DNA from: Solirubrobacteraceae bacterium | GTDB taxonomy: Bacteria; Actinomycetota; Thermoleophilia; Solirubrobacterales; Solirubrobacteraceae | DNA length: 64,000 nt | Assembly: GCA_036379935.1 (NCBI GenBank) | Contig: DASVFT010000166.1 | Span: 3,683-67,682 of the forward strand | Reading direction: 5' to 3' | In this document: positions 7,646 to 27,488 of the stretch, piece after piece | How the letters are laid out: every line of letters begins with the position of its first letter | Position numbering within the stretch: position 1 is the stretch's first letter | Notes under the pieces: generated by a model | The model's input: only the letters and a program-made list of their open reading frames with translations | Told to the model about the DNA's origin: nothing | Database searches by the model: none | Position numbers and translations under genes: made by a program

Positions 7646-9118
7646 ATGCTGTCGTTCATCTTCGCCCAGGTCAAGTCGCTCGAGGAAGCGGCCCCAACGC
7701 AGTCCCTGACGCAGGACTCCGCCGTCCTGGGCGAGCAGTTCTACTTCTTCACGGTCGTCTTGATGTGGCTGATCCACGCCGGCTTCATGTCCTACGAGGC
7801 CGGCGTCGCCCGACGCAAGAACGTCATGGCGACGGCGATGAAGAACATCCTCACGATCGCCGTCGTGACGCCGACCTTCTACTACTTCGGCTGGTGGGTC
7901 TACAACTGCAATCAGGCGGGCCTGCCGATCGGCCCCAACTCCTCGGACTTCACCGCCGCCGCATGCCAGGGCGGCATCCCGTGGAGTGACGCGTTCGGCC
8001 CCAACCTGACGAACAACATCAACCTGATCTTCTTCCTCGCCTTCCTGCTCTTCTCGTGGACGACGGCCTCGATCATGTCGGGCGCGATCATCGAGCGGGC
8101 GCGCATCTCGGCCTATCTCGTGCTCGCCGCCCTGCTCGGCTCGGTCGTGTGGATCCTCGACGCGGCATGGGGCTGGAGCGCGGGCGGCTGGCTCACCATG
8201 CGCTTCGGGTTCCACGACTCCATCGCCTCCGCGGTGGTCCACGGCGTGGCGGGAGCGTTCACTCTCGGGGTGCTGTTCAACGTCGGGCCGCGAATAGGCA
8301 AGTACACGAAGGACGGGCTGACGCGCGCGTTCAGGCCCCACAACCTGCACATCACCGCGCTCGGGCTGATGCTGATCTTCACCGGGTTCTACGCGTTCTA
8401 CGGCGCGTGCCTGGTGATCGCCTCGACCTCGTTCCCGGGGTGGGCCAACATCTACCTGAGCCCGACGACGCTCGGCTCGATCACCATGGTCATCACCATG
8501 GGGTTCGCGGGCGGCTTCACCGGCGGCTACTTCGCCAGCCGCGGCGATCCGTTCTGGACCATCTCCGGCGGCCTGGCAGGGGTCATCGGCGTCTCGGCCG
8601 GCGCGGACGTCTACGCACCGACCCTCGCCTACCTGGTCTCGATGCTCACGGCCGTCCTCGCGGTCTACGCCGGCGGCTGGATCGAGACCAAGATGCGCGT
8701 CGACGATGCCGTCGGGGCGGTGGCCGTGCACGGCTGCTCCGGCTTCCTCGGGATCCTGTGGGTCGGCGTCTTCGCCGCCGGATACCCGACGGGGATCAAC
8801 AACGTCGAGAGCTCGATCGGGGGCCAGCTCATGGGCCTGGCGACCTTCCTCCCGCTCGGCTTCCTGTCCGGCTGGGTGGCGTCCTACGTGCTCAAGCGCC
8901 TGAACCTCCTGCGCGTCCCCGTCGAGGTCGAGCTCGAGGGCCTGGACCTGGCGGAGTACGAGACCGACTTCTACCCCGAGCACGCCCGGGCGCCCGAGGT
9001 GATCGTCGAGCCCGACGGCTCGCTCACCCCGGGCGAGGAGCTGCTGCCGCGCGAGCTCGCGTCGCTCACCAACGGCGCCAGACCGAACGACCGAGTCGGC
9101 GCGGGAGTGGGGGGATAG
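7646..9118 (+). CDS. amt: ammonium (possibly methylammonium) transporter, Amt/MEP/Rh family
   Basis: 490 aa, polytopic. FHDSIASAVVHGVAGAFTLGVLF and VDDAVGAVAVHGCSGFLGILWVGVFA correspond to the conserved Asp and twin-His regions of AmtB. The SD sequence GAGAGGGGA lies upstream of the ATG. Confidence 0.9.
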   Translation: MLSFIFAQVKSLEEAAPTQSLTQDSAVLGEQFYFFTVVLMWLIHAGFMSYEAGVARRKNVMATAMKNILTIAVVTPTFYYFGWWVYNCNQAGLPIGPNSSDFTAAACQGGIPWSDAFGPNLTNNINLIFFLAFLLFSWTTASIMSGAIIERARISAYLVLAALLGSVVWILDAAWGWSAGGWLTMRFGFHDSIASAVVHGVAGAFTLGVLFNVGPRIGKYTKDGLTRAFRPHNLHITALGLMLIFTGFYAFYGACLVIASTSFPGWANIYLSPTTLGSITMVITMGFAGGFTGGYFASRGDPFWTISGGLAGVIGVSAGADVYAPTLAYLVSMLTAVLAVYAGGWIETKMRVDDAVGAVAVHGCSGFLGILWVGVFAAGYPTGINNVESSIGGQLMGLATFLPLGFLSGWVASYVLKRLNLLRVPVEVELEGLDLAEYETDFYPEHARAPEVIVEPDGSLTPGEELLPRELASLTNGARPNDRVGAGVGG

Positions 9119-9268
9119 ATGCTCAGCTTCCTGATCAGCCTGGCCATCATGTTCAGCCTCGTGGGCGCCTGCGTCACGTGGGCCAAGCGCGAGGAGCGCC
9201 GGCGGATGGCCGCCGACGAGCTCGACCCAATCCAGGAGGTGCTCGGCGGTGCCCGGGATCATCGATAG
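9119..9268 (+). CDS. 49-aa single-TM protein
   Basis: It is too short for the ORF track and was read from the sequence: MLSFLISLAIMFSLVGACVTWAKREERRRMAADELDPIQEVLGGARDHR. The ATG directly abuts the amt stop (TAGATG), preceded by GGGGGGA. Confidence 0.4.
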   Translation: MLSFLISLAIMFSLVGACVTWAKREERRRMAADELDPIQEVLGGARDHR

Positions 9269-9584
9269 CGCGCCCGACTGCATCACCCACGTCAGCGGCG
9301 CGAAGCCGCCCGACGATTCGGCGGACTTCATCATCCAGGCCGCCTACGCGAAGTGCCAGGGGATCATGACCTTCGGCCCGGGCTCCACCTACGGCGACGG
9401 CGGCGCGGGCGCCGCTGGGTCCTACATGGTGCTGACGTGGATCGGGATCATCGTCATGGTGGCGGTCATCGTGGCCTGGGTCGTGTACGAGGACCGGCGT
9501 CTGTGGCGGCACGTCGCCCGCATCCAGGGACGGCCCCGCGGCGGGCCGGCCGCCGGCGTGACCGAACGTCCCGTGACGGATTAG
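9249..9584 (+). CDS. 111-aa membrane protein (one C-terminal TM)
   Basis: The GTG start is preceded by AGGAGG at about 9 nt. TM segment: SYMVLTWIGIIVMVAVIVAWVVY. An alternative ATG at 9366 (MTFGPGS) is possible. Confidence 0.45.
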   Translation: MPGIIDSAPDCITHVSGAKPPDDSADFIIQAAYAKCQGIMTFGPGSTYGDGGAGAAGSYMVLTWIGIIVMVAVIVAWVVYEDRRLWRHVARIQGRPRGGPAAGVTERPVTD

Positions 9585-9602
9585 CGAGAGGAAGAGAGCA
9601 GC

Positions 9603-9764
9603 ATGGCATCCCAGCGCAGGCGCCAGATCGAGTTCCCGCCGCTTCAGACGCACAAGAAGAGCTTCGAGCTTGCGATGATCGCCATCTCGATCATCTGCGT
9701 GATCGTCGTCCTCGTGATCCTCCTCGCCACCAATATTGGCAACGAGTTCCGTCCGACCGTCTAG
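9603..9764 (+). CDS. 53-aa single-TM protein
   Basis: Read from the sequence: MASQRRRQIEFPPLQTHKKSFELAMIAISIICVIVVLVILLATNIGNEFRPTV. A purine-rich SD (GAGAGGAAGAGAG) lies upstream. Confidence 0.45.
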   Translation: MASQRRRQIEFPPLQTHKKSFELAMIAISIICVIVVLVILLATNIGNEFRPTV

Positions 9765-10113
9765 CGCCCAGGCCCACGCCGGGCGCCCGACGTGGGTTCG
9801 GCCCGCCATCCTCGTCGTGGGCCTCTTCGCGATCTGCCTCGTGGTCGCCAGCAGCTGCCAGCGCCGCCAGGTCCGGATCACCAAGGAGGCGGCCATCGTC
9901 ACCGCCACGCGGGCGGCCGACTTCCGTCCGCAGCGCACGCAGGTGCGGCTCGTGCGCCAGGGCCTCAATGGCCATCCGTTCTGGGCCATCTCGCTCTCCA
10001 TCCCGCGCAAGGGGGGCAACGGCTACCAGCGCGTGTCCGTCGCCCGGGTCGACGCCAACAGCGGCAAGCTCGTGGCCTTCACCGAAAACGCAAGCACGGA
10101 AGGAGCGCCATGA
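9736..10113 (+). CDS. membrane-anchored PepSY-like protein
   Basis: 125 aa from a TTG start, with TM PAILVVGLFAICLVVASS. This is followed by ITKEAAIVTATRAA...GHPFWAISL...VARVDANSGKLVAF, which resembles a PepSY fold. The stop overlaps the GS-like ATG (ATGA). The start codon is uncertain. Confidence 0.45.
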   Translation: MATSSVRPSSAQAHAGRPTWVRPAILVVGLFAICLVVASSCQRRQVRITKEAAIVTATRAADFRPQRTQVRLVRQGLNGHPFWAISLSIPRKGGNGYQRVSVARVDANSGKLVAFTENASTEGAP

Positions 10114-11501
10114 GCGCAGCACAGGGAAGCGAGCCGCTCGTCGCTCCGCAGACGGCGGATGAGGTCCGCAAGCTCGCGCGCGACGGCGAGATCGAGTTCC
10201 TCTTCGCGCAGTTCGTCGATATGCACGGCAAGCCGAACGCCAAGCTCGTTCCGGCGCACCATCTGGACGACCTGCTCGCCGATGGCGCGGGCTTCGCGGG
10301 CTTCGCGGCCGGAGACATCGGCCAGGGCCCGCACGACCCCGATCTCATCGCCATGCCCGACGTGCGCAGCTACACGCCGCTGCCCTGGCGGCCCGGAGTC
10401 GCCCGCTTCGCGTGCGACGTCACAGTGGAGGGCGAGGAATGGCCGTACTGCCCGCGGACGATCCTGCGCCACCAGCTCGAGCGGGCCGCGGCCTTGGGCT
10501 ACGAGTTCCGCATCGGGGCCGAGCTCGAATACTTCCTCGTGCGCCGGCGCGAGGACGGCTCACTCGAGCTCGCCGATCGCTTCGACACGCTGGAGCAGCC
10601 TTGCTACGACATGCGCGGCCTGACGCGCAACCTCGACTTCGTCTCCGCGGTCTCGCGCAACATCACGGCGCTGGGCTGGGACAACTACGCGACCGACCAC
10701 GAGGACGCCAACGGGCAGTTCGAGCAGAACTTCGAGTTCGACGACGCGCTCGTCACCTGCGATCGCGCCGTCTTCTTCCGCTACATGGTCGAGGCCATGG
10801 CCCAGGAGCGCGGCATGCTCGCGACGTTCATGCCCAAGCCGTTCGCCCACCTCACCGGCAACGGCTGTCACTTCCACATGAGCCTCTGGAAGGACGGCGC
10901 GAACGTCTTCGAGGCCGATCCGGCCGACGACCCCCGTGGCCTGGGGCTCTCCGAGCTCGGCTACCAGTTCGTCGCCGGCCTGAAGGCCCACGCCAAGGCC
11001 TACATCGCGGTGACCGCGCCGACCGTGAGCTCCTACAAGCGCCTGGTGGTGGGCGCCCCGACGAGCGGCGCGACCTGGGCGCCGGCCTACGGCCGCTACG
11101 GCTACAACAACCGCACGCAGATGCTCCGCATCCCCGGTCCTGGCCGCATCGAGGACCGCACGGTCGACGGATCATGCAACCCGTACCTGGCCGCCACGGC
11201 GGTGCTGGCGGCCGGGCTGGACGGCATCGAGCGCGGGCTGGACCCGGGGGACCCCAACTCGCTGAACCTCTACGAGACCGACGAGGCCCAGCGCAAGGAG
11301 CTCGGCATCGACGTGCTGCCGGCCAACCTGCTCGACGCGACCCGCGAGCTCGAGCGCTGCGACGTCCTGCGAGCCGCGCTCGGCCGGGGGCGCGACGAGG
11401 ACTACCTCGACTACTTCGTGCGCTGCAAGCGGCGCGAGTGGCAGCAGGCCCACGAGCAGATCACGCAATGGGAGCTGGACCGGTACCTGCAGCTGTTCTG
11501 A
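10110..11501 (+). CDS. glutamine synthetase family protein (gamma-glutamyl-amine ligase candidate: GmaS/PuuA/GlnA3-like)
   Basis: 463 aa from the ATG at 10110 (SD GGAAGGAG). Motifs: ELEYFL, TFMPKPFAHLTGNGCHFHMSLW, NRTQMLRIP, EDRTVDGSCNPYL. Confidence 0.9.
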   Translation: MSAAQGSEPLVAPQTADEVRKLARDGEIEFLFAQFVDMHGKPNAKLVPAHHLDDLLADGAGFAGFAAGDIGQGPHDPDLIAMPDVRSYTPLPWRPGVARFACDVTVEGEEWPYCPRTILRHQLERAAALGYEFRIGAELEYFLVRRREDGSLELADRFDTLEQPCYDMRGLTRNLDFVSAVSRNITALGWDNYATDHEDANGQFEQNFEFDDALVTCDRAVFFRYMVEAMAQERGMLATFMPKPFAHLTGNGCHFHMSLWKDGANVFEADPADDPRGLGLSELGYQFVAGLKAHAKAYIAVTAPTVSSYKRLVVGAPTSGATWAPAYGRYGYNNRTQMLRIPGPGRIEDRTVDGSCNPYLAATAVLAAGLDGIERGLDPGDPNSLNLYETDEAQRKELGIDVLPANLLDATRELERCDVLRAALGRGRDEDYLDYFVRCKRREWQQAHEQITQWELDRYLQLF

Positions 11502-12340
11502 GCGACGAGCAGGTCGAGGCCTTCCACCGCGACGGCTTCCTCGTCATCGAGGAGGGCTTCATCTCCGACCGCACGATCGAGGCGCTGCGCGAGCGCTTCG
11601 ACCGGTTGTTCGCGGGCGAGTACGCCTCCGGCATCCAGCCCGACGAGGTCAACTGGAGACCAGGCCGCGATCCCGAGGACAGGACGCGGCAGATCTGCAA
11701 CGGCTGGCGGGCGGACGACATGATCGCCGCACAGGTGCTCAGCGAGCCGACGGGGCGCATCGCCGCCCGACTGATGGGCTACGGCGGCGCTCGCATCCTG
11801 CAGGACAACTGCCTCTGGAAGCCGCCCGGCGCGCGCTCGCTCGGCATGCACCAGGACGGCTCCTACGCCGACTACCTGGTCCCGGCGGAGATGATCACCT
11901 GCTGGGTGGCGCTGGACGACACCCGCGCCGAGGGCGGGACGATCGAGTACGCGCGCGGCTCGCACCGCTGGCCCAAGGTCCCACCCGACCGCGGGAGCTT
12001 CCACGCCCCGGACGACTGGCTGGCGCCGCTGCACGCCGCCGCGCCCGAGGGTGAGGAGCCCGAGGTGGTGCCGGTCGTGGTCAAGGCCGGCGGCTGCTCG
12101 TTCCACCACTCGCTCACCTTCCACGGCTCCGGCCCCAACGAGGCGACCACGCACCGGCGCGCGATCGTCTCGCACCTGCTGCCGGCTCAGGCGCGCTTCC
12201 ACCCGACGAACGTCGACCCGATCTACTCGCGCTACCGGCGCCGCGGCGACCTGTCGATGGACGAGTCGTTCTTCCCGGTGCTCTGGGACGAGGCCGGCGG
12301 GCGCACGTCCTGGCTCGACGAGTTGCCCAACCTCTCGTAG
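11468..12340 (+). CDS. phytanoyl-CoA dioxygenase (PhyH) family Fe(II)/2-oxoglutarate oxygenase
   Basis: About 290 aa. It has MHQDGSY (HxD) and TFHGSGPN (distal His), plus LSDEQVEAFHRDGFLVIE at the N-terminus. The only canonical in-frame start is the ATG at 11468, which overlaps the GS-like gene by 34 nt. The start is uncertain. Confidence 0.75.
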   Translation: MGAGPVPAAVLSDEQVEAFHRDGFLVIEEGFISDRTIEALRERFDRLFAGEYASGIQPDEVNWRPGRDPEDRTRQICNGWRADDMIAAQVLSEPTGRIAARLMGYGGARILQDNCLWKPPGARSLGMHQDGSYADYLVPAEMITCWVALDDTRAEGGTIEYARGSHRWPKVPPDRGSFHAPDDWLAPLHAAAPEGEEPEVVPVVVKAGGCSFHHSLTFHGSGPNEATTHRRAIVSHLLPAQARFHPTNVDPIYSRYRRRGDLSMDESFFPVLWDEAGGRTSWLDELPNLS

Positions 12341-12915
12341 CGCCCGCCGTGGAACAGCAGCGGCGTGCCCGGATGCTGGCGCGCGTACTCGACGCGCCCG
12401 AGGAAGAGCGAGTGGTCGCCGCCCCAGTACGAGCGCTCCACACGCGCCACGAAGTGCGCGAGCGCGGCTTCGACCAAGGGCGTGTCGCGCACGAGCTCGA
12501 AGCGCGGCTCCGGAGCTCCGTTCGCCACCCGCCCCGCGAAGCGATCCGAGAGCGCGCTCTGGGTCTCGCTCAGCACGCTGACGCCGTACCGGCTCCCCTC
12601 GTAGAGCAGGCCACACATCTTGGTCCGCCGGTCGACGGACACCAGCACGAGCGGTGGGTCGAGCGACACCGACATGAAGGCGTTGGCCGTCATCCCGTGG
12701 ACCTTCTCGCCCTTGAGCGTCGTGATCACCGTGACGCCGGTGGTGAACATCCCCAGCGTGCGGCGTAGAGCGGCCGCGGGATCGTCGCCCTCGTCGGCGA
12801 GGTCCGGCCGCTGGACCTCGGCGACCTCGTCGAAGCGGGTCTCTCCGATGCCGTCCGGGCCGGCCCAGCTGAGCGGGAAGTCGAACTCCGCGGGCGGGCG
12901 GGCGGCGTCGCTCAT
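12232..12915 (-). CDS. flavin reductase family protein (NAD(P)H:flavin oxidoreductase)
   Basis: 227 aa with FTTGVTVITT...HGMTANAFMSVSLDPPLVLVSV. It starts 1 nt after the stop of the upstream Tdm-like gene. Its low-complexity C-terminal tail is antisense to the PhyH 3' end. Confidence 0.8.
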   Translation of the reverse strand: MSDAARPPAEFDFPLSWAGPDGIGETRFDEVAEVQRPDLADEGDDPAAALRRTLGMFTTGVTVITTLKGEKVHGMTANAFMSVSLDPPLVLVSVDRRTKMCGLLYEGSRYGVSVLSETQSALSDRFAGRVANGAPEPRFELVRDTPLVEAALAHFVARVERSYWGGDHSLFLGRVEYARQHPGTPLLFHGGRYERLGNSSSQDVRPPASSQSTGKNDSSIDRSPRRR

Positions 12916-12916
12916 G

Positions 12917-15244
12917 TCATGCGCGCGGGCGGGTCTTGTCCGGGTCGTAGAACGGGAAGCGGACGACCTTGGCCGCGATGCGCTTCTGGAGCCCGTCGAG
13001 CTTGCCCACCTCGACCTCCGTGCCCAGCTCCGCGTACTGCACGGCCATGCGGCACAGCGCGACGTTCTTGCGCAGCGTCGGGCTGCGGGTGCCGCTGGTG
13101 ACGACGCCCACGCGCTGGCGGCCCACGTAGACCTCGTCGCCGTGGCCGGCGGTCTCGTTGCCCTCGAGATCGAGACCGACGAGCCGGTGCTGGGGGTGCG
13201 CCGCGCGCTCGACGAGCGCGTCCTTGCCGACGAAGTCCTCCTCGCCGTCGAGCTTGACCGCGAAGCCGATGCCGGCCTCGAAGGGGTCGACCTGGTCGTC
13301 GAACTCGTACCCGGCGAAGATGAGCCCCGCCTCGATGCGGATCATGTCCAGCGCCTCGAGGCCGAGCGGCTTGAGGCCGTGCGGCTGGCCCGCCTCCCAG
13401 ATGGCGTCCCACACGGCCGGGCCGTCGTCGGGGTGGCAGAACACCTCGTAGCCGAGCTCGCCCGTGTAGCCGGTGCGCGAGACCACGACGGGGACGCCGT
13501 CGTAGCCCCCGATGCGCCCGACGAGGAAGCGGAACCACTTCAGCTCGTCGAGCGGGGGCTGCGTCGGGGGCGTCCAGATGATCTGCTGCATGATCGCGCG
13601 GCTCTCGGGCCCCTGGACCGCGAGGTTGTGCAGCTGATCGGTCGAGGGCTTGACGAAGGCCTTCAGCGCGAGGCGCTCGGCCAGCTCCTTGAGCCAGACG
13701 CCGTCGTAGGGGTCGCCGCCGACGAAGCGGAAGTTGTCCTCGCCGAGGCGGAAGACGGTGGCGTCGTCGATCATCCCTCCGGTCTCGTTGCACAATGCCG
13801 TGTAGACCACGTGGCCGACCGCCAGCCGGCGCGCGTCGCGCGTGATCGCGCGCTGGATCAGCGTCTCGGCGTCGGGGCCGAGGACCTCCCACTTGCGCAG
13901 GGGGGAGAGATCCATGACGACCGCCTTCTCGCGGCAGGCCCAGTACTCGGCGATGGCGCCCTCGTTGTTGTAGCAATGGGGCAGCCAGTAGCCGCGGTAC
14001 TCCACGAAGCTCTCGGTCAGCGCGCTCGTGCGCGGATGGAAGGTGGTCTCCTTGGTCAGCACGGGCTCTGCCTCCGGGGTGACGCGATGGGCGATCGCCG
14101 CCGAGAAGCGGTTCTCAGGCGAGTACACGCGCACGTGGACGTCGGTGAGCTCCCAACCGTTGGCCGGGTCGATGTCGTCCGGGCACGCCGACGAGGCGCA
14201 GACCAGGTCGGTCATCGCCCGCAGCAGCACGTAGTCGCCGGGGCGCGACCAGGGCTCGTCGAAGAAGAGGACGTTGCTCGCGTCGAACCCGGTGTTGTAG
14301 AAGAAGTTGAGCGCCTCCCATCCCTTGCGCTCGGCGATGCCGTAGGGCGTGACCTGGCCGTTGAAGTTCGCCGTGCAGTTGATGTGGCCCGGATAGCCCA
14401 TGTCCTCGTAGTACTTCGAGGTGCAGGCCAGCGCGAAGGTGTCGTGACGCCCGACGGTGTCGCGCACGACCTCGACGAGCGGGTCCATGTCGACGTCGTA
14501 GAACTTGCCCTGAAGGCCCGGGCTCGGATAGGCCTGGCCCATCAGCGTGCGGGTCGTGGCGCCGTCGAGGCCGCGCTCGAGCCCCTTCTCGAGCTTGGCG
14601 CGATGGAAGGCCAGGAAGTCCGAGCACTGGCGCCCCTGGACGTCGATGACCTGGATGTACTCGCCCCGGCGCACCTCGTAGGCGAGCGCGCTCGCGAGGT
14701 CGACGCGGAAGTCGAGGCGCGGCTCGGCCAGCGGCGGCGGCAGCTCCACGTCGGTCGCGGGCCGCGGCGCGGCGCGGCGGATCTCGATGACGAGCGCCGA
14801 CGCCGGCGGATCGCCGTCCACCACGCGGCCTCCGGGCGCCGCCACGATGACCAGCGCGTCGCGCTGGGCGAGGAAGGCCTCCGAGGCGCCGGGCGGGCTG
14901 TCGCGGCCGAAGAGCAGCAGCGCCTTCGCGTCATGCGGGGCCAGCCCGCGCGCGTGCAGGACGGCCAGGAAGGCGTCGTCGGCTCCGCTGCGCACGAGCT
15001 CGCGCAGCGCACCGGCCGGCGCGTCGGCGCTGGCACCCAGGGCGCCGGGATCGTGGCGCCCGTCGGGCGCGAGGACGGTCAGCTCGGCCGGCTGCCCGCC
15101 CTCGACGTCGATCACCGTCATGCGGTCGTCGCCGCGCAGCTCGACGACGGTGGCCGAGCCGGGCCTGACCCACCAGGTCTCCAGGCTCGGATCGGCCGGC
15201 CTACGCCCGGCGACGAGCGGTCGACTGCCGGTCTCGATCGCCAT
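12917..15244 (-). CDS. DUF1989 + GcvT aminomethyltransferase fusion protein (TMAO demethylase Tdm-type architecture)
   Basis: 775 aa. The N-terminal ~400 aa hold DUF1989-like segments (VIDVEGGQPAEL; YIQVIDVQGRQCSDFLAF; CTSKYYEDMGYPGHINCTANF; VCASSACPDD). The C-terminal ~370 aa are GcvT-like (VVMDLSPLRKWEVLGPDA, SRTGYTGELGYEVF, IEAGLIFAGYEF). Confidence 0.8.
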   Translation of the reverse strand: MAIETGSRPLVAGRRPADPSLETWWVRPGSATVVELRGDDRMTVIDVEGGQPAELTVLAPDGRHDPGALGASADAPAGALRELVRSGADDAFLAVLHARGLAPHDAKALLLFGRDSPPGASEAFLAQRDALVIVAAPGGRVVDGDPPASALVIEIRRAAPRPATDVELPPPLAEPRLDFRVDLASALAYEVRRGEYIQVIDVQGRQCSDFLAFHRAKLEKGLERGLDGATTRTLMGQAYPSPGLQGKFYDVDMDPLVEVVRDTVGRHDTFALACTSKYYEDMGYPGHINCTANFNGQVTPYGIAERKGWEALNFFYNTGFDASNVLFFDEPWSRPGDYVLLRAMTDLVCASSACPDDIDPANGWELTDVHVRVYSPENRFSAAIAHRVTPEAEPVLTKETTFHPRTSALTESFVEYRGYWLPHCYNNEGAIAEYWACREKAVVMDLSPLRKWEVLGPDAETLIQRAITRDARRLAVGHVVYTALCNETGGMIDDATVFRLGEDNFRFVGGDPYDGVWLKELAERLALKAFVKPSTDQLHNLAVQGPESRAIMQQIIWTPPTQPPLDELKWFRFLVGRIGGYDGVPVVVSRTGYTGELGYEVFCHPDDGPAVWDAIWEAGQPHGLKPLGLEALDMIRIEAGLIFAGYEFDDQVDPFEAGIGFAVKLDGEEDFVGKDALVERAAHPQHRLVGLDLEGNETAGHGDEVYVGRQRVGVVTSGTRSPTLRKNVALCRMAVQYAELGTEVEVGKLDGLQKRIAAKVVRFPFYDPDKTRPRA

Positions 15245-15255
15245 GGGCAGGAAGG

Positions 15256-15454
15256 CTAGATGACTGATTCCGCGGCCCGCGCGGCCAGATGGCCGTGCAC
15301 CGTGGATGCCGGGCGACGCGGGCCGAAGGGGGACAGTGGCAGAGCGGGCACCGACGGCCGGAGGCCGTTGGTCGGTGACCTCTTCGGACCGTGGCGATCC
15401 GGCGCCGCGGGGCGCGGACAGATGGTCGTGGGCGTCGTGGAATCAGTCATCTAG
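15256..15454. repeat. 199-bp imperfect palindrome with 16-bp perfect terminal inverted repeats (possible MITE-like element or long RNA hairpin)
   Basis: CTAGATGACTGATTCC at 15256-15271 is the exact reverse complement of GGAATCAGTCATCTAG at 15439-15454. The interior is partly self-complementary with indels, and the apex lies near 15355-15362. It fills the whole intergenic gap, and the right arm contains the ACAD-fold gene stop codon. Confidence 0.75.
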
Positions 15455-18616: not shown

Positions 18617-18631
18617 TCGCGCTGCGCCCGC

Positions 18632-21534: not shown

Positions 21535-21960
21535 TCAGTGGGCCGGCGCCTCCCAGCCCTCGAGCACGCCCGGCCGCCAGTCCTCGCCGACGGTCCGCGA
21601 GCCCTCGACCCAGGGGCCGAGCTCGGGCTGGGGGAACTTGCAGTGGGTCTCCTTGAGCCGGATGCCGTAGGAGTTGCCCGCCTGCAGATGCGCGATCAGG
21701 ACCTTGCGGGCGATCTCGTGCTCGCGCCCTTCGGGGATCGCGAAGTAGATCTTCAGGAAGGCGTTGGAGTAGCGGTCGAACACCGCCGGCGTCCCCTCTT
21801 CCTGCAGGAGCTCGATGTCCTCGAGCCAGTTGATGTCCTGCCCGGGCGTGGCGGCCTCGAGGTCGATGTCCTCGACGAGGCCGATGTCCTCCTGGTAGGG
21901 GAAGCGCTGCCCGGAGAGCTCCTCCGCGTCGAGGGCGACGATCTTGCGCGGCTCGCTCAC
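21535..21960 (-). CDS. hypothetical 141-aa acidic protein, translationally coupled inside the amine operon
   Basis: The GTG at 21960 forms a GTGA overlap with the upstream stop. The stop lies 1 nt before the next ATG. The composition is non-biased (…DRYSNAFLKIYFAIPEGREHEIARKVLIAHLQAGNSYGIRLKETHCKF…). I do not recognise a family. Confidence 0.6.
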   Translation of the reverse strand: MSEPRKIVALDAEELSGQRFPYQEDIGLVEDIDLEAATPGQDINWLEDIELLQEEGTPAVFDRYSNAFLKIYFAIPEGREHEIARKVLIAHLQAGNSYGIRLKETHCKFPQPELGPWVEGSRTVGEDWRPGVLEGWEAPAH

Positions 21961-23390
21961 GGCTCCACCGCCTCGCGCTCGGGGAGCCGGTCGATGGGGT
22001 TCTCCAGATAGCGGTCGAGCATCGTCTTGATCTCGTCGAGCGCGCGCTCCTCGGACACGCCGGGGATGTAGCTCGTGCCGGCGAGCGGGACGCGGGCCAT
22101 GGCCGCGGCCTCGGTGGTGAGGGCGGCGAGGTCCTCGGGCTCGAGGCTGTGCACGTTGGTCTTGCCGCACGCGCGCGCCAGCATCTGCACCTCGAGCGTC
22201 ATCGTGTGCAGGAAGTTGTAGACGCGGTGGGCGGCCTCCTCCACGTGCAGTCGCTTGCGCAGCTCGGGGTCCTGCGTGGTGATGCCGACCGGGCAGCGGC
22301 CCGTGTGGCAGTGGTAGCAGCGGCCGGCCGCGACGCCGACGGTGCCCTCGTAGTCGGTGACGCCCGGGATCTCCTTGTTGCAGTTGAGCGCCATGAGCGC
22401 GGAGTGGCCGATCGCCACCGCGGTGGCCCCCAGCGCCAGGCACTTGGCGACGTCGCCGCCGTTGCGGATGCCACCGGCCACCACGAGGTCGATCTCGTCG
22501 GCCAGCCCCACGTCCTCGAGCGCGCGCCGCGCCTCGGGGATGGCGGCCATCAGCGGGATGCCGGTCTCCTCGGTCGCCAGGTGTGGCCCCGCGCCGGTGC
22601 TGCCCTCGGCGCCGTCGAGGTAGATGACGTCCGGACCGCACTTGGCCGCCATGCGCACGTCGTCGTACACGCGCGCGGCGCCCAGCTTGAGCTGGATCGG
22701 CACCTCGTAGTTCGTCGCCTCGCGCGTCTCCTGGACCTTCAGCGAGAGGTCGTCGGGGCCGAGCCAGTCGGGGTGGCGCGCCGGGGAGCGCTGGTCGATG
22801 CCGGGCGGCAGACTGCGCATCTCCGCGACCTGCTCGGTCACCTTCTGGCCCATCAGGTGGCCGCCGAGCCCGACCTTGCAGCCCTGGCCGATGAAGAACT
22901 CGATCCCGTCGGCCAGCATCAGATGGTGCGGGTTGAAGCCGTACCGGCTCTGGATGATCTGGTAGTACCACTTGGTCGAGAGGTCGCGCTCGGGCGGGGT
23001 CATCCCGCCCTCACCGGAGCACGTCGCCGTCCCGGCCATCGAGGCGCCCTTGGCCAGCGCCATCTTCGCCTCCAGGGAGAGCGCGCCGAAGCTCATGCCC
23101 GTGATGTAGATCGGGATGTCGAGCTCGAGCGGCTTCTTCGCGAACCGCGCCCCGAGCACGGTCTTCGTCTCGCACTTCTCGCGGTAGCCCTCGATGACGA
23201 AGCGGGTCAGGGTCCCGGGCAGGAAGATGAGCTCGTCCCAGTGCGGGATCTTCTTGAACATCGAGAAGCCGCGCATCCGGTAGCGGCCGAGCTCGGCCTT
23301 CATGTGGATGTCGTCGATGACCTCCGGCGTGAAGATCTGGCTGCGCCCGAGGACCGTGCGCTGAGAAGGAGCGTTCTCGTCGGGGGTCAC
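21957..23390 (-). CDS. FMN-binding glutamate synthase family protein (GlxD / MgsC-like) with Fe-S-type cysteine motif
   Basis: 477 aa from the GTG at 23390 (GTGA overlap). Motifs: ITGMSFGALS, GQGCKVGLGGHL, VVAGGIRNGGDVAKCLALGATAV, RCYHCHTGRCPVGITTQ. Confidence 0.9.
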   Translation of the reverse strand: MTPDENAPSQRTVLGRSQIFTPEVIDDIHMKAELGRYRMRGFSMFKKIPHWDELIFLPGTLTRFVIEGYREKCETKTVLGARFAKKPLELDIPIYITGMSFGALSLEAKMALAKGASMAGTATCSGEGGMTPPERDLSTKWYYQIIQSRYGFNPHHLMLADGIEFFIGQGCKVGLGGHLMGQKVTEQVAEMRSLPPGIDQRSPARHPDWLGPDDLSLKVQETREATNYEVPIQLKLGAARVYDDVRMAAKCGPDVIYLDGAEGSTGAGPHLATEETGIPLMAAIPEARRALEDVGLADEIDLVVAGGIRNGGDVAKCLALGATAVAIGHSALMALNCNKEIPGVTDYEGTVGVAAGRCYHCHTGRCPVGITTQDPELRKRLHVEEAAHRVYNFLHTMTLEVQMLARACGKTNVHSLEPEDLAALTTEAAAMARVPLAGTSYIPGVSEERALDEIKTMLDRYLENPIDRLPEREAVEP

Positions 23391-24166
23391 AGGACCAGCT
23401 TCCTCTCGGAGGGCTCGAGGCTGTCGTAGTTGTAGAGCTTCTTGCCGCACACGAACTTCTGCAGTTCGGGGGGCGCGCCGAGGCCGTAGATGCGGAACTT
23501 GCGCTCGACGAGCTCCGTGTCGGCGTCGGTCCACTCGCCCTCGACGCAGTCGATGCCCAGCGCCGCGACCTTGCCGCCCACGTAGATCGTGCCGTCGTAC
23601 ATCGAGTCGCCGAGGCCGGGGCCCACGTCGCCGCAGATGATCTGGCGCCCGCGCTGCATCATGAAGCCCGTCATCGAGCCGGCGTCGCCGAGCACGAGGA
23701 TGGTCCCGCCCTTCTGGTCGATCCCTGTGCGCGCGCCGACCTGGCCCTTGACGACGAGATCGCCGCCGCGCAGCGCGGCCCCCGCGAGCGAGCCGGCGTT
23801 GCTCTCGACGACGACCACCCCCGACATCATGTTCTCGGCCACCGACCAGCCCACGCGGCCATTGATCTGGACCTCGGGCCCGTCGATCAGGCCGCAGCCG
23901 AAGTAGCCGAGGCTGCCCTCGAAGGTGATCCGGCAGCGCGTGAGGATGCCGGCGGCGAGCGAGTGGCGGGCGCTGGGGTTGAGGATCGTGACGTCCTTGA
24001 CGCCCTGCTCGTAGACCAGCCAGCGCAGCTCGGCGTTGATCTTGCGCGTCGACAGCTCGCGCGCGTCGAGCACGGCACGCTCGCCGTCGATCTCGGCGAT
24101 CTTGGGAACGCTGCCGTCGAGCTCGACGAGCCCGCGGGCGTCGTAGGTCGCGCTCAGGCTGTCCAC
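23387..24166 (-). CDS. GXGXG-motif protein (GlxC / MgsB-like)
   Basis: About 259 aa from the GTG at 24166, which overlaps the upstream gene by 13 nt. Motifs: FEGSLGYFGCGLIDG, INGRVGWSVAENMMSG, VKGQVGARTGIDQKGG. The start is moderately uncertain. Confidence 0.8.
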   Translation of the reverse strand: MDSLSATYDARGLVELDGSVPKIAEIDGERAVLDARELSTRKINAELRWLVYEQGVKDVTILNPSARHSLAAGILTRCRITFEGSLGYFGCGLIDGPEVQINGRVGWSVAENMMSGVVVVESNAGSLAGAALRGGDLVVKGQVGARTGIDQKGGTILVLGDAGSMTGFMMQRGRQIICGDVGPGLGDSMYDGTIYVGGKVAALGIDCVEGEWTDADTELVERKFRIYGLGAPPELQKFVCGKKLYNYDSLEPSERKLVL

Positions 24167-25089
24167 ACCATCACCGCGCCCTCGTAGGGGTCGTAGGTCT
24201 CGATCTCGCGGTCGACGACCTTGCGGATGGCGATCTCCTCGGAGGCCAGGGCGACGATCTCGTCGGACTCGTAGAGCACGAGCGGCTTGGCGCCGAGCTC
24301 GTCCTTGGCCACGCCGAGCGCGTCCTCGGTGACGCAGATGTAGGTGAACACGCCGTCGAGCTCGCGCAGGCTGCGGCGCATCGCGTCCTCCAGCGAGTCG
24401 CCCTGGGTCAGCCGCTCGGCCAGGTAGACGGCGATGATCTCCGAGTCGCACTCCGACTGGAATCGGTGGCCGGCGCGCTCCAGGCGCCGCCGCCACTGGT
24501 GGTAGTTCGTGAGCTGGCCGTTGTGGACGACGGCCACATCGGGGAAGGGGTAGGCCCAGTAGGGGTGGGCGTTGGCGATGTCCACGTCGGACTCGGTCGC
24601 CATCCGCGCGTGCCCGATCGCGTGGGTGCCCACGAAGCCGTTCAGGCCGTAGTCGGCCGCCACGGTCTCGGCGTCGCCGAGGTCCTTGACGATCTCCAGC
24701 GAGCGCCCCAGCGAGAGCACCTCGGCGCCGCGCACGTCCTCGATGTAGTCGGCGAGCTCCTTGAGGTCGCCGTCGTGGTCGAAGGTGACGGTCATCGCGT
24801 GCTCGGAGCTGGCGTCGATCGAGCCGACGCGCGCGCCGAGCGAGCCGAGACGGGCCTCGATCTGCCCGCGCTGGCGGCGCAGGCGGTCGGTGAACTCGAA
24901 GTCCTGGTGCCCGTTGGCCTCCGACAGCTTCACGTGCATGACGTAGCCGTCGGCGTCGGGGCGGTAGAGCGCGTAGCCCGTCGAGTCCGGCCCCCGGTGC
25001 TTCATGGCCTGGAGCATGCGCGTCATGTCGCGCCCGATGTCGTGGCGCTCCTCGCCGTCGCGGTAGATGATCCCGGCGATCCCGCACAT
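24154..25089 (-). CDS. class II glutamine amidotransferase (GlxB / MgsA-like)
   Basis: 311 aa starting MCGIAGII, with GHARMATES and VVHNGQLTNY. It starts 2 nt after the GS-like stop. Confidence 0.85.
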   Translation of the reverse strand: MCGIAGIIYRDGEERHDIGRDMTRMLQAMKHRGPDSTGYALYRPDADGYVMHVKLSEANGHQDFEFTDRLRRQRGQIEARLGSLGARVGSIDASSEHAMTVTFDHDGDLKELADYIEDVRGAEVLSLGRSLEIVKDLGDAETVAADYGLNGFVGTHAIGHARMATESDVDIANAHPYWAYPFPDVAVVHNGQLTNYHQWRRRLERAGHRFQSECDSEIIAVYLAERLTQGDSLEDAMRRSLRELDGVFTYICVTEDALGVAKDELGAKPLVLYESDEIVALASEEIAIRKVVDREIETYDPYEGAVMVWTA

Positions 25090-25091
25090 GG

Positions 25092-26585
25092 CTAGGGGAG
25101 CACCTCGAGGTACTCGTCGCGCTCCCAGTCGGTCACGGCGGCGAGGTAGCGCTCCCATTCGTCGCGCTTGTAGTGGTGGAACACCTGCCACAGGCGCCCG
25201 GGCATCGCGCCGTCGCGGATGACCTCGTCGTTGCCGAGCGCGACGAGCGCGTCGCCCAGGCTGTCGGGCACGCGCTCGAGCGGCTGCTTGCCGTTGGACT
25301 CCTGGAGCAGGTCGTAGGTGTTGGCGCTCTGGGGCTCGCCGGGGTCGAGCTCGCGCTTGATCCCGTCCAGGCCGGCGACCAGCAGGGCCGCCACGGTGAG
25401 GAAGGGGTTGCACGACGAGTCCACGCCGCGGTACTCGAAGCGCCCGCCGGAGGCGACGCGCACGGTGCAGGTGCGGTTCTGCCAGCCCCAGTTCTTGTAC
25501 ACCGGAGCCCAGAAGCCGACGTCCCACATCCGGCAGTAGGAGTTCACCGTCGGGTTGCCGACGCACATCAGCGCCCCGAAGTGGTCGAGCATGCCGCCCA
25601 GGAAGGAGCGGGCGATGTCCGAGAGCTGGGCGGGGCCGTCCGGGTCGTGGAAGACGTTGTTGCCCTCGTCGTCGACGAGCGTGAAGTGGTGGTGGTGGCC
25701 GTTGGCCGAGACGCCCGTGAACGGCTTGGGCATGAAGCTCGGCAGCAGGCCGTGCTTGCGCCCGACCGCCGCGCAGAGCTGGCGGTAGGTCGTGATGTTG
25801 TCGGCGGTCTTGACCGGCCGGTCGAAGCGGAAGTTCAGCTCGAGCTGTCCGGGGGCGTCCTCGTGGTCGCCGTAGCTCATGTCGAGGCCGAGCGCCTGGC
25901 CGTACTCGACCACGTCGAGCAGGACCGGACGAAGCTCCTCGAACTGGTGGATGTGGTAGCAGTAGGGCTTCGTCACGCCCTCGGCGGACGAGCCGTCCTC
26001 GGAGCGCCGCAGCCACATCATCTCCGGCTCGATGCCGATGAGGAAGCTGTAGCCCAGCTCGCGCTCGAACTCGGCGACGACGCGCTTGAGGTTCTGGCGC
26101 GGGTCGGCGTCCATCAGCTCGCCGGTCTCGGTGTCGTAGCAATCGCAGTACACGCGCGCGACGCGCGGATCCCAGGGCAGCTGGGCGAAGGTGTCGAGAT
26201 CGGCGATCGCCGCGAGCTCGGACTCCTCGGGTCCGAAGCCGATGTAGTTGCCCGCGCGGTCGGTGAAGAGATTGGCGGTGGCGCCGTACACGAGCTGGTA
26301 GCCCTTCTCGGCGACCTGCGGGAAGAACGACGAGACGACGCCCTTGCCCATGACCCGGCCGGTGACCGAGACCTGCTGGAAGAAGACGTACTTGATCCCC
26401 TGGCTCTCGATCCGGCGCGTGATCTCCTCGATCCGCTCGCGCCGGCCGGGCTGGTTGCGCGCCTCCTCGAGCGTGGCCGGGGGAGGCGCTGTCTTCGGCG
26501 TCTCGAGAACGGTCTTGACGGTGCCGCCGAAGCTCAGCGGAGCCTGCGGGTCGACGGCAACGCTTCCCTCGTAACGGTCGGTCAT
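25092..26585 (-). CDS. glutamine synthetase family protein, type III/GlnT-like (gamma-glutamylmethylamide synthetase GmaS candidate)
   Basis: 497 aa from the ATG at 26585 (MTDRYEG; SD GGAGAG). Motifs: IEPEMMWL, SFMPKPFTGVSANGHHHHFTL, NRTCTVRV, EYRGVDSSCNPFL. The longer track start at 26660 lies upstream of a -10-like box. Confidence 0.85.
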   Translation of the reverse strand: MTDRYEGSVAVDPQAPLSFGGTVKTVLETPKTAPPPATLEEARNQPGRRERIEEITRRIESQGIKYVFFQQVSVTGRVMGKGVVSSFFPQVAEKGYQLVYGATANLFTDRAGNYIGFGPEESELAAIADLDTFAQLPWDPRVARVYCDCYDTETGELMDADPRQNLKRVVAEFERELGYSFLIGIEPEMMWLRRSEDGSSAEGVTKPYCYHIHQFEELRPVLLDVVEYGQALGLDMSYGDHEDAPGQLELNFRFDRPVKTADNITTYRQLCAAVGRKHGLLPSFMPKPFTGVSANGHHHHFTLVDDEGNNVFHDPDGPAQLSDIARSFLGGMLDHFGALMCVGNPTVNSYCRMWDVGFWAPVYKNWGWQNRTCTVRVASGGRFEYRGVDSSCNPFLTVAALLVAGLDGIKRELDPGEPQSANTYDLLQESNGKQPLERVPDSLGDALVALGNDEVIRDGAMPGRLWQVFHHYKRDEWERYLAAVTDWERDEYLEVLP

Positions 26586-26640
26586 GCGCACTCTCCGGGT
26601 GTCGATGGGGTGCGAATCCAGCGCGGGCGAACGCGGCCCG

Positions 26641-26672
26641 ACTATATCTGGATTGGTCAAATTGGTCTATTC
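26641..26672 (-). promoter_or_regulatory. AT-rich patch with direct repeat GACCAAT-TT-GACCAAT and -10-like TATAGT (candidate promoter/operator of the GS-like operon)
   Basis: The minus-strand reading is GAATAGACCAATTTGACCAATCCAGATATAGT. It is the only AT-rich stretch in the 80-nt gap and straddles the GntR stop codon. Confidence 0.3.
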
Positions 26673-27488
26673 GCGCGAGCGGCGACCGATCGCCGGCACC
26701 GGCGGCGCTTCCTCCAGCCAGCGCACGACGTGCAGGTCGAGGCTGCGAGGCAGGAAGGTGTCGACGGAATGCTCGAGTGGAGCTCCCTCGGCGGTGCAGG
26801 TCACGTGCTCGATCTCGAGCGCCGCGGTGGTGTCGGTGACGCCGAGCGCCCGGCCGACCGGGTCGCGCTCCGTGAGGACTCGGGCCATGATGTGCGAGCG
26901 GTTGTAGGCCACCGGCACGCCCTGCTTGAGCAGGACGTCGAGGACCATCTGACCGCGCTCCAGGGCGTGGCGGAGCTTGGCGGGCGCCGGCAGCGGGATG
27001 CGCGGATGGACGACGTCGCGCATGTGGGCGGCGGGCCCGCCGTCCATGACCACCACGCGGGTGATGGTCGTGGCCAGGGTCTCGGGCTCGAGCTCGAAGA
27101 GCGGCGCGTGCTCGGAGCCGAGCGGCAGCCGCTCGATGTCCAGCTGTCCCAGCTCGAGCCGGACGCCGCGCTGGCGGGCCAGCTCGTTGTAGGAGACGAG
27201 CTTCTCCAGGCCCTCGTCCAGGGTCCACGACGTCGCCTGCCCGACGAAGGTGCCGCTGCCCTGGCGGCGCACGATCTCCCCGCTCTCCTCGAGTCGGCGC
27301 AACGCGGTGCGCAGCGTGCCGCGCGAGATGCCCAGCCGGGCCGAGAGCTCCTGCTCAGGCGGCAGGCGCTCGCCGGAGCGGTGACGACCGGTCGCAAGCC
27401 AGCGCCGCAGCGCGTCCTCCGCGACGTCCACGAGCGAGGTCCTGACCTCACGAGGCGCTGCCGTACCGGAAGAGGACCCGTTCGTCAT
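26667..27488 (-). CDS. GntR-family transcriptional regulator (HutC-like, UTRA effector domain)
   Basis: 273 aa. N-terminal wHTH: LPPEQELSARLGISRGTLRTALRRLEESGEIVRRQGSGTFV. The C-terminal ~150 aa are UTRA-like. Confidence 0.85.
   Translation of the reverse strand: MTNGSSSGTAAPREVRTSLVDVAEDALRRWLATGRHRSGERLPPEQELSARLGISRGTLRTALRRLEESGEIVRRQGSGTFVGQATSWTLDEGLEKLVSYNELARQRGVRLELGQLDIERLPLGSEHAPLFELEPETLATTITRVVVMDGGPAAHMRDVVHPRIPLPAPAKLRHALERGQMVLDVLLKQGVPVAYNRSHIMARVLTERDPVGRALGVTDTTAALEIEHVTCTAEGAPLEHSVDTFLPRSLDLHVVRWLEEAPPVPAIGRRSRE

Follow-up and report, generated by a model that had tools for sequence, protein, structure and literature searches.

A methylated-amine catabolic island of Thermoleophilia with local absence of Tmm, Dmm and Mgd and candidate replacement enzymes

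We analysed a 64,000-nt stretch of DNA (the window) from Solirubrobacteraceae bacterium (assembly GCA_036379935.1, contig DASVFT010000166.1), a soil actinobacterium of the class Thermoleophilia represented by a metagenome-assembled genome (MAG). Positions 742-27488 of the window are a methylated-amine catabolic island, of a kind found across Thermoleophilia. The island carries genes for a trimethylamine N-oxide (TMAO) demethylase (Tdm), a gamma-glutamylmethylamide synthetase (GmaS) and an N-methylglutamate synthase (MgsABC), and alongside them an acyl-CoA dehydrogenase (ACAD)-fold flavoprotein with a flavin reductase, a PhyH-family oxygenase and DAO-type oxidoreductases, which we consider as candidates for the steps classically assigned to Tmm, Dmm and Mgd.

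Organisation of the island

Since the window has a G+C content of about 71%, genes were called from the GC content of third codon positions (GC3 frame plot), and domains were assigned by Pfam and NCBIfam scans. An initial annotation of this DNA had placed an amine-catabolic island at 7646-27488; every gene and domain that it listed was recovered at the same coordinates by these three approaches, and the island as a whole extends further, to 742. It had also presented the first stretch (block 1) as a single run of genes. Instead, block 1 consists of three transcription units on both strands, including two open reading frames (ORFs; 9249-9584 and 9736-10113) that had gone unmentioned: unit 1 (+) holds amt, the 111-aa and 125-aa ORFs, the GS1 gene and the PhyH gene, unit 2 (-) the ACAD-fold, Tdm and flavin reductase genes, and unit 3 (+) the APC permease gene. 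The genes 5' of block 1 all lie on the minus strand and encode a PucR/GAF regulator, a 215-aa protein, an Na/H-exchanger-family protein and a trio of synthase subunits (set A). Block 2 is, as the initial annotation had it, a nine-gene minus-strand operon, which runs from 27488 to 18632 and includes a second trio (set B). It is tightly packed, with neighbours overlapping or 1-2 nt apart from the ligase gene GS3 to the last gene, and the GntR gene lies 81 nt upstream of GS3. The genes are as follows.

742-2046 (-): MgsC of set A, FMN-binding GltS subunit (Pfam Glu_synthase)
2048-2782 (-): MgsB of set A, GXGXG subunit (Pfam GXGXG)
2761-3666 (-): MgsA of set A, class-II amidotransferase (Pfam GATase_6/7; MCGI start)
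3742-4953 (-): Na/H-exchanger-family membrane protein of the set-A operon (Pfam Na_H_Exchanger; syntenic in the related loci L002, L003 and L052)
4950-5597 (-): 215-aa membrane protein (no Pfam match; syntenic with the PucR and Na/H-exchanger genes in L002, L003 and L052)
5800-7494 (-): PucR-type regulator, divergent from amt (Pfam: GAF, GGDEF-like and HTH_30)
7646-9118 (+): Amt-family transporter (Pfam Ammonium_transp, 196 bits)
9249-9584 (+): 111-aa small membrane protein (coding GC3 signal; no Pfam match; conserved in L002 and L003 only)
9736-10113 (+): 125-aa signal-anchored protein (GC3 signal; no Pfam match; 79-80% identical in L002 and L003)
10110-11501 (+): GS1, assigned as GmaS, gamma-glutamylmethylamide synthetase (TIGR03105)
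11468-12340 (+): PhyH-family Fe(II)/2-oxoglutarate oxygenase (Pfam PhyH, full length)
12232-12915 (-): NAD(P)H:flavin reductase (Pfam Flavin_Reduct; StyB/HpaC-like)
12917-15244 (-): Tdm, predicted TMAO demethylase, 775 aa (NF053776 equivalog)
15451-16854 (-): ACAD-fold flavoprotein (Pfam ACAD N, M and C domains)
17012-18616 (+): APC-family permease (Pfam AA_permease_2)
18632-19039 (-): 135-aa Zn-ribbon protein (CxxC...CxxC and a C-terminal hydrophobic, probably transmembrane region)
19030-20274 (-): DAO2, DAO-type FAD oxidoreductase (Pfam DAO)
20274-21533 (-): DAO1, DAO-type FAD oxidoreductase (Pfam DAO)
21535-21960 (-): u141, 141-aa acidic protein (no Pfam or NCBIfam match)
21957-23390 (-): FMN GltS-like subunit of set B (Pfam Glu_synthase)
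23387-24166 (-): GXGXG subunit of set B (Pfam GXGXG)
24154-25089 (-): class-II amidotransferase of set B (Pfam GATase_6/7; MCGI start)
25092-26585 (-): GS3, GmaS-like gamma-glutamyl-amine ligase (TIGR03105, 345 bits)
26667-27488 (-): GntR/UTRA regulator at the head of the set-B operon (Pfam GntR and UTRA)

The stop codon of the 125-aa ORF overlaps the start of GS1. The convergent PhyH (+) and flavin reductase (-) genes share 109 nt at their 3' ends (12232-12340), and the C-terminal tail of the reductase is of low complexity. A promoter and terminator scan of 7400-19200 gave nothing that exceeded the shuffled expectation, and a scan of the island against Rfam found no riboswitch or other RNA element.

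Both transporters of the island are divergent. Amt scores under the cut-off of TIGR00836 and probably imports (methyl)ammonium. The best NCBIfam model of the APC permease is the TMAO permease NF053774, with 200 bits against a cut-off of 690, which suggests a distant relative of the proteobacterial TMAO permease.

Tdm, GmaS and a classical MgsABC

The 775-aa protein has the architecture of Tdm, a protein of about 760-790 aa, with DUF1989 at residues 181-348, GCV_T at 403-662 and GCV_T_C at 687-767 (Pfam). It scores 1187.8 bits against the NF053776 equivalog model (cut-off 1100) and aligns end to end with the solved TDM of Paracoccus (9q59, 919 bits). The Paracoccus structure has a three-cysteine zinc site (C285, C301 and C365) and the substrate residues D220, F327 and D367 (PMC13619132); in the window protein all of these are identical except F327, which is replaced by Tyr. 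We regard the protein as a genuine Tdm orthologue, with a predicted activity of converting TMAO to dimethylamine (DMA) and methylenetetrahydrofolate.

GS1 scores 605 bits against TIGR03105, the model for ligases of the GlnT/GmaS type (cut-off 469.6). Its best matches in the Protein Data Bank (PDB) are the glutamate-methylamine ligase 9qur (427 bits) and RhGmaS (7cql, 402 bits), and true glutamine synthetases (GS) reach about 260 bits. In RhGmaS the flap Glu is replaced by Trp and Asp50' by Ala, and Asp177 is the third hallmark residue (PMC7948447); GS1 carries all three, and we assign it as a true GmaS. The set-A subunits are 56/66/76% identical to MgsABC of P. aminophilus, and the B and C subunits 66/76% identical to Rhizobium MgsB and MgsC. 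Set-A MgsC shares 76-78% identity with its counterparts in Rhizobium, Paracoccus, Methylobacterium and Ca. Mycobacterium methanotrophicum. The amidotransferases of sets A and B both start with MCGI, so the Cys1 nucleophile is kept in each. By these comparisons, the classical N-methylglutamate genes of the island are GS1 and set A (742-3666). With a true Tdm orthologue and a true GmaS, the island does concern methylated amines, as had been proposed at the outset.

Local absence of Tmm, Dmm and Mgd

We searched the window and the 10-kb flanks of Tdm in 80 related loci (described below) by tblastn. A Rhizobium plasmid supplied the queries Tmm, DmmD/A/B/C, GmaS and MgsB/C; the Paracoccus aminophilus plasmid pAMI6 supplied MgsABC, GmaS, a flavin-containing monooxygenase (FMO) and, for Mgd, SoxB, SoxD and a portion of SoxA. 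DmmA, DmmB and DmmC had no match in the window or in any of the 80 loci, and the DmmD query matched the GcvT domain of Tdm only. Neither the Rhizobium Tmm nor the Paracoccus FMO query had a match in the window, and weak Tmm/FMO matches (21-27% identity, 45-61 bits) occur in a few related loci (for example L069, L019 and L029). For Mgd, no SoxA- or SoxD-like gene was found in the window and only L076 of the 80 loci has SoxA/SoxD, SoxG having been outside the query set; the lone window match of SoxB is DAO1, at 26% identity. Tmm, Dmm and Mgd are absent locally. The initial annotation had noted the lack of canonical Dmm and Mgd, which holds for the window and, apart from L076, for the flanks of the related loci. 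It had overlooked that Tmm is missing as well.

An ACAD-fold protein paired with a flavin reductase

Homologues of the ACAD-fold protein are 466-467 aa long, which places its start at Met17. When it is aligned to the true acyl-CoA dehydrogenases 3pfd, 8i4p and 7w0j, the catalytic Glu of the YEG motif is replaced by Gly (VMGPTNE), and 25 homologues all share this Gly. In NCBIfam the protein comes closest to the uncharacterised Rv1679/FadE16 family, under its cut-off; weak NCBIfam and PDB matches include SfnB (61 bits), DszC (47 bits), DnmZ (48 bits) and HsaA. A search of 1.84 billion cluster representatives returned a small distinct family, with full-length members of its 50% clusters 64, 46, 41 and 36% identical, followed by generic ACADs. 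On plasmids, the nearest homologue (35%, Methylocystis) is part of an sfnG/ssuD/msuE cluster of FMNH2-dependent sulfur monooxygenase genes with an FMN reductase nearby. AlphaFold2 models of the ACAD-fold protein and of u141, each built from a shallow alignment of 82-95% identical sequences, had a predicted local distance difference test (pLDDT) score of 45.9 and 58.5, respectively, values too low for the models to support conclusions on fold or pocket.

In the island the start codon of the flavin reductase gene directly follows the stop codon of Tdm, in the same operon as the ACAD-fold gene. Moreover, two ACAD-fold homologues (P0125 and P0150; 770 and 882 aa) carry a fused reductase of the Fre/FNR type (FAD_binding_6 and NAD_binding_1), and on a low-GC contig (L089) an ACAD homologue is followed by an FAD_binding_6 gene. 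Because the catalytic base is lost, a flavin reductase shares the operon and reductase fusions exist, the ACAD-fold protein is most likely the oxygenase part of a two-component flavin monooxygenase, whose substrate we infer. ACAD-fold monooxygenases, among them DszC, isobutylamine N-hydroxylase and KijD3, typically oxygenate heteroatoms. We rejected a role as a true acyl-CoA dehydrogenase, given the missing catalytic Glu, the synteny with Tdm and the reductase-fused homologues.

The two fusion genes contain introns and lie in crustacean assemblies, P0125 in that of the American lobster (L087, GCA_018991925.1; 46%) and P0150 in GCA_905338405.1 (L090; 36%). The former assembly is cited in a paper on Homarus americanus, and the neighbour of the lobster fusion gene encodes a chitin-binding cuticle-protein domain. 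Marine crustaceans generally accumulate TMAO, and the fusions may be a clue to the substrate of the ACAD family.

A PhyH oxygenase related to an N-dealkylase

The PhyH protein retains an intact HxD...H...R iron/2-oxoglutarate motif. Its nearest solved homologue, at 69 bits, is MysH, an oxidative N-dealkylase for which hydroxylation of the carbon beside the nitrogen and subsequent breakage of the C-N bond have been proposed (PMC10666671). The position of the gene varies: it follows GmaS in the window, Tdm in Gaiellaceae and set B in L088. By sitting beside GmaS, Tdm or set B, PhyH ties the enzyme that would make DMA to the enzyme that would use monomethylamine (MMA), and it is predicted to be a DMA N-demethylase.

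A second ligase and synthase module

The initial annotation had taken the ligase and synthase genes of block 2 for the GmaS-MgsABC of the described pathway. We rejected this assignment, as GS1 and set A, the latter outside the coordinates it had given, are far closer to the characterised proteins. Set B is 34% (Paracoccus MgsA), 36-40% and 53-55% identical to proteobacterial MgsA, MgsB and MgsC, and its GltS subunit is 55% identical to set-A MgsC. It has the architecture of MgsABC and, judged by these identities, is a divergent lineage-specific paralogue, not a demonstrated orthologue.

GS3 is 35% identical to GS1. It scores 345 bits against TIGR03105, under the cut-off, and its PDB scores are similar for an archaeal GS (267 bits) and the best GmaS structure (247 bits). 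Because the flap Trp and the equivalent of Asp177 are kept in all 15 aligned orthologues from related loci, we class GS3 as an amine ligase of the GmaS kind, but as a distinct paralogue, in which the Asp50' loop has been remodelled by an insertion. Polyamine-type (PuuA) ligases were considered and rejected for both proteins, which score far under the cut-off of 650 of the GGputSyn model NF045547 (GS1 283 bits, GS3 267 bits), in a comparison that did not extend to Streptomyces GlnA3 and GlnA4; membership of the polyamine clade, which the initial annotation had named as evidence against its proposal, was thus found for neither. A canonical GS (GlnA; Asp50' and flap Glu present, Gln-synt_C 436 bits) is encoded at 54102-55445 (+), and with this third GS-family gene GlnA, GmaS and GS3 all lie within 45 kb.

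The remaining genes of the operon are less familiar. More than 7700 metagenomic homologues of u141 exist, all annotated as hypothetical, and the gene always follows that of the set-B GltS subunit. DAO1 and DAO2 are 43% identical to each other and show weak similarity (50-72 bits, in the N-terminal half) to SoxB, MSOX, MTOX and the beta subunit of proline dehydrogenase; no plasmid homologue of DAO1 was found at E<1e-15. We predict DAO1 to be an N-methylglutamate oxidase or dehydrogenase. The Zn-ribbon gene always adjoins a DAO gene or the set-B operon, and its product is possibly a membrane anchor for the DAO enzyme. In some Solirubrobacterales a flavin amine oxidase gene (PF01593) follows the Zn-ribbon gene at the DAO position (L059, 18606-19808 (-); L065, 16521-16928 (-)). 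The final oxidase seems to be interchangeable between loci.

Conservation among related loci

To place the island among its relatives, the Tdm protein was scanned against GTDB genomes, which gave 578 confirmed relatives; the 80 that match best (71-87% identical) form the set of related loci used here. All 80 are from Thermoleophilia MAGs and, where classified below the class, belong to Thermoleophilaceae, Solirubrobacterales and Gaiellaceae. The public label 'Bifidobacterium breve' on two of the contigs with the island (L040 and L060), which are high-GC and Thermoleophilia-like MAG sequences, is almost certainly wrong. Synteny was assessed by tblastn and by clustering of called genes; 56 loci have full 10-kb flanks round Tdm and 74 have enough upstream sequence.

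In 72 of the 74 loci, across three Thermoleophilia families, the ACAD-fold gene immediately precedes Tdm on the same strand, and its product is the more conserved of the two (median identity 84% vs 75% for Tdm). Among the 56 full-flank loci, ACAD is present in 55, the flavin reductase in 53, the Zn-ribbon protein in 48, the APC permease in 47, u141 in 35, set-B GltS in 34, DAO1 in 30, PhyH in 26 and GS3 in 18. DAO2 orthologues occur in four loci only (L003, L004, L008 and L020). As it recurs in 80 related loci, the arrangement is not due to chance.

The order of the genes differs between lineages. Gaiellaceae-type loci have the order ACAD-Tdm-PhyH, and in L021 and L023 a single strand reads GS3-set B-u141-ACAD-Tdm-PhyH. 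Solirubrobacterales-type loci lack PhyH within 10 kb; conserved among them are the genes for the APC permease, ACAD, Tdm, the reductase, GS3, set B and u141, together with one for an oxidase. A distant lineage, L088, in which the ACAD-fold protein is 62% identical, has GS3-set B-u141-PhyH-GFA, then ACAD and an OpuAC-type ABC transporter, then the reductase and Tdm. GFA here is a glutathione-dependent formaldehyde-activating enzyme, encoded at 4671-4994 (+) of L088 between PhyH and ACAD, and the ABC transporter stands in place of the APC permease. Only the two closest loci, L002 and L003, combine GS1, Amt and PucR; trios like set A are also present in L070, L074 and L075.

In many related loci (L007, L009, L011, L013, L018, L051, L070, L075 and L078) the Tdm operon is flanked, at about 12-21 kb or 4-8 kb of the loci, by genes for phosphoribulokinase (PRK), a LysR regulator, a class-V aminotransferase and an HpcH/malyl-CoA-lyase-like protein. 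Thermoleophilaceae relatives have these genes and one for an FTCD_C cyclohydrolase-like protein. The FTCD_C gene is found in, for example, L004, L007 and L011, and PurU in L001. That serine-cycle-like and folate one-carbon genes flank the operon suggests one-carbon assimilation. The window itself contains none of these genes (PRK, class-V aminotransferase, HpcH, FTCD_C or PurU).

Other features of the window

Outside the island, a fluoride riboswitch (55513-55579 (+), 36.4 bits; gathering score 34) precedes a small ORF (55601-55870) and an Na/H-exchanger-family gene (55870-57051), and a c-di-AMP riboswitch of the ydaO type is found at 49496-49658 (+; 81.6 bits). Class A RNase P RNA is encoded at 35753-36090 (+; 212 bits) and a tRNA at 30261-30346 (-). 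Genes for an Ogt/Ada-type methyltransferase and LexA are divergent at 31684-32908. At 43565-48882, two ORFs without domain matches are followed by a 1313-aa DnaE-type polymerase, in what looks like an ImuA/ImuB/DnaE2-type mutagenesis cassette.

Discussion

The initial annotation had offered two alternatives, namely that other enzymes take the DMA and N-methylglutamate steps, or that the island degrades a different amine through gamma-glutamylated intermediates. As Tdm and GmaS are true and Tmm, Dmm and Mgd are missing locally, the former is the better reading, with the ACAD/reductase pair, PhyH and the DAO proteins as candidates. Because Tmm is missing too, the ACAD/reductase pair may replace Tmm rather than Dmm. 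Our best model, which we hold tentatively and with somewhat less than even confidence, is that the ACAD/reductase pair replaces Tmm, PhyH replaces Dmm and the DAO oxidases replace Mgd.

According to this model, TMAO would enter through the APC permease and (methyl)ammonium through Amt. The ACAD-fold protein, using reduced flavin supplied by the reductase, would convert trimethylamine (TMA) to TMAO, standing in for the FMO-type Tmm, and Tdm would then yield DMA and methylenetetrahydrofolate. PhyH would hydroxylate a methyl group of DMA to give MMA and formaldehyde, in place of DmmDABC. One or both of the two modules, GmaS plus set A and GS3 plus set B and u141, would take MMA through gamma-glutamylmethylamide to N-methylglutamate. 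Finally, DAO1 (and DAO2), possibly held at the membrane by the Zn-ribbon protein, would release glutamate and formaldehyde from N-methylglutamate, standing in for MgdABCD. The link of the DAO proteins and set B to this route is supported by L021 and L023, where they share an operon with ACAD-Tdm-PhyH, and by their occurrence within 10 kb of Tdm in 30-35 of the 56 loci.

Much of this scheme is known. Tdm, GmaS, MgsABC and the intermediates are those of the proteobacterial pathway; what appears to be new is that up to three enzyme systems have been replaced and a paralogous synthase module has been added. When the island is set against the TMA/N-methylglutamate pathway known from Methylocella silvestris, Ruegeria pomeroyi, Paracoccus and Rhizobium, orthology extends to Tdm (about 57-61% identical, active site kept), GmaS (39-41%) and set A (56/66/76%), and an APC-type permease gene adjoins tdm as on the Rhizobium and Paracoccus plasmids. 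In contrast, the window is without FMO-type Tmm, DmmA/B/C and Mgd of the SoxA/SoxD type (with SoxG beyond the queries), and instead has the ACAD-fold protein and reductase, PhyH, DAO oxidases, the Zn-ribbon protein and the second ligase/synthase module with u141.

The N-methylglutamate clusters of Gram-positive bacteria offer a second comparison. A GlnT(GmaS)-MgsABC cluster is present in other actinobacteria, namely the Lake Washington Mycobacterium (PMC5023230) and Ca. M. methanotrophicum (NZ_CP097321). GS1 is 49% identical to GlnT of the latter and set-A MgsC 78% identical to its MgsC, and on its plasmid MgsABC is followed by a single FAD oxidoreductase rather than by a four-subunit Mgd. However, that oxidoreductase is only 24-29% identical to DAO1 and DAO2, and the mycobacterial clusters have neither an ACAD-Tdm operon nor a set B with u141. 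The Lake Washington mycobacteria have been reported to have an FMO-type Tmo and homologues of MgdA-D (PMC5023230).

Each of the candidate enzymes resembles a known family without being close to it. The ACAD-fold protein shares the three-domain fold, the lost base and a separate flavin reductase gene with the group D monooxygenases (DszC, SfnB-type enzymes, isobutylamine N-hydroxylase and DnmZ/KijD3), but similarity is low, and the protein has N- and C-terminal extensions (467 vs about 390 aa) and forms its own small family. PhyH shares with MysH the fold and the iron/2-oxoglutarate motif, and the N-dealkylation proposed for MysH is the chemistry proposed here for DMA, although the match amounts to only 69 bits. 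We know of no characterised PhyH enzyme that acts on DMA or another small methylamine. The DAO proteins have the FAD domain of the sarcosine oxidases (MSOX/MTOX and SoxB), and SoxB/MSOX-like proteins are their best matches; they differ in that scores are weak, there are no SoxA/D partners (SoxG was not a query) and no folate-binding domain, and the DAOs pair with a Zn-ribbon membrane protein. Our literature searches found nothing that connects Thermoleophilia with methylated amines, no ACAD-type or two-component TMA or DMA monooxygenase, and no PhyH oxygenase or DAO proteins of these kinds tied to methylated amines.

Several observations weigh against the replacement of Tmm, Dmm and Mgd as we have assigned it. 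The loss of the catalytic base was read at the YEG position, with the alternative base position of IVD-type enzymes outside the comparison; among solved structures, ordinary acyl-CoA dehydrogenases match the ACAD-fold protein best (about 27% identity), and homologues of 46% identity occur without Tdm nearby. About half of the loci, those of the Solirubrobacterales type among them, have no PhyH in the 10-kb flanks, and the enzyme may for that reason be accessory. The resemblance of DAO1 and DAO2 to sarcosine oxidases is remote (50-59 bits, confined to the N-terminal half), and two N-methylglutamate-synthase-like modules in one genome are unaccounted for if both use MMA. In addition, the ACAD/reductase pair could equally be a DMA monooxygenase, and canonical tmm, dmm and mgd could sit elsewhere in the genome, of which 64 kb of a contig of about 68 kb are in view.

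The assignment of the ACAD/reductase pair to DMA (giving MMA and formaldehyde), with permease-imported TMAO as the entry substrate and PhyH as accessory or acting on another intermediate, is in our estimation unlikely, yet it is a serious contender. A route from TMAO to glutamate needs a DMA step, for which the pair is the sole universal candidate, PhyH being absent near Tdm in Solirubrobacterales-type loci. The transporters look suited to TMAO, with NF053774 as the best match of the APC permease and an OpuAC-type ABC transporter in L088, and amine-dealkylating two-component flavin monooxygenases are known, for example the nitrilotriacetate and ethylenediaminetetraacetate monooxygenases, which have a different fold. 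On the other hand, the ACAD-fold monooxygenases characterised to date oxygenate heteroatoms or aromatic rings, and none is known to hydroxylate the C-H bond of an N-methyl group. Such an assignment would also leave PhyH, with its N-dealkylase relative and its linkage to Tdm, GmaS and set B, without a role. The crustacean reductase fusions, if from TMAO accumulators, fit TMAO synthesis better, which is a weak argument. The presence of two paralogous ligase/synthase modules could also be explained if GS3 ligated DMA to glutamate, set B and u141 then formed N,N-dimethylglutamate, and the DAOs stripped both methyl groups in turn, leaving MMA to GmaS and set A. Such a route would account for two DAO paralogues and for the fact that set B, not set A, travels with Tdm; RhGmaS is weakly active on DMA (Km 16 mM; PMC7948447), and it is the Asp50' loop of GS3 that an insertion has remodelled. 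Nevertheless, we consider it very improbable: DAO2 occurs in only 4 of the 80 loci, gamma-glutamyl-dimethylamide and N,N-dimethylglutamate are without known precedent as metabolites, PhyH is again unexplained, and in most loci set B is the only visible module, which makes it more simply the MMA module of the lineage.

It is also quite improbable, in our judgement, that the odd genes are unrelated to methylated amines, in which case the ACAD-fold protein would be an ordinary acyl-CoA dehydrogenase, block 2 would serve ethylamine, ethanolamine or polyamines, and the canonical genes would lie elsewhere. The limited view of the MAG, the true ACADs among the top PDB matches, the TIGR03105 score of GS3 and the SoxA/SoxD-like genes of L076 all speak for it. 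Yet ACAD and Tdm are adjacent in 72 of 74 loci from three families and the link persists where the ACAD-fold protein is 62% identical; that protein has lost its catalytic Glu and has reductase-fused homologues; in L021 and L023 set B shares an operon with ACAD-Tdm-PhyH; and GS3 fits the GmaS-type model better than the PuuA model (345 vs 267 bits) and carries GmaS hallmark residues. We continue to favour replacement of Tmm by the ACAD/reductase pair, of Dmm by PhyH and of Mgd by the DAO oxidases. Stated in full, the proposal is that Thermoleophilia replace three of the six classical enzyme systems, with an ACAD-fold TMA N-oxygenase, a PhyH DMA demethylase and a membrane-tethered DAO oxidase, and that u141 is a fourth synthase subunit; in this complete form it is possible, and we regard it as doubtful.

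Thermoleophilia are among the most abundant soil actinobacteria and are poorly cultured. Methylated amines (TMA, TMAO, DMA and MMA) are climate-relevant nitrogen and carbon compounds, whose microbial sinks are traced by marker genes that were all defined in Proteobacteria (tmm, tdm, dmm, gmaS and mgd). Should the proposal be true, three new activities would gain gene candidates, namely an ACAD-fold TMA/DMA monooxygenase, a 2-oxoglutarate-dependent DMA demethylase and a simple N-methylglutamate oxidase, and u141, with its many homologues, would gain a functional context. The reductase-fused relatives of the ACAD-fold protein could then make TMAO in crustaceans. Furthermore, surveys based on tmm, dmm and mgd as markers would overlook this part of the soil methylated-amine sink.

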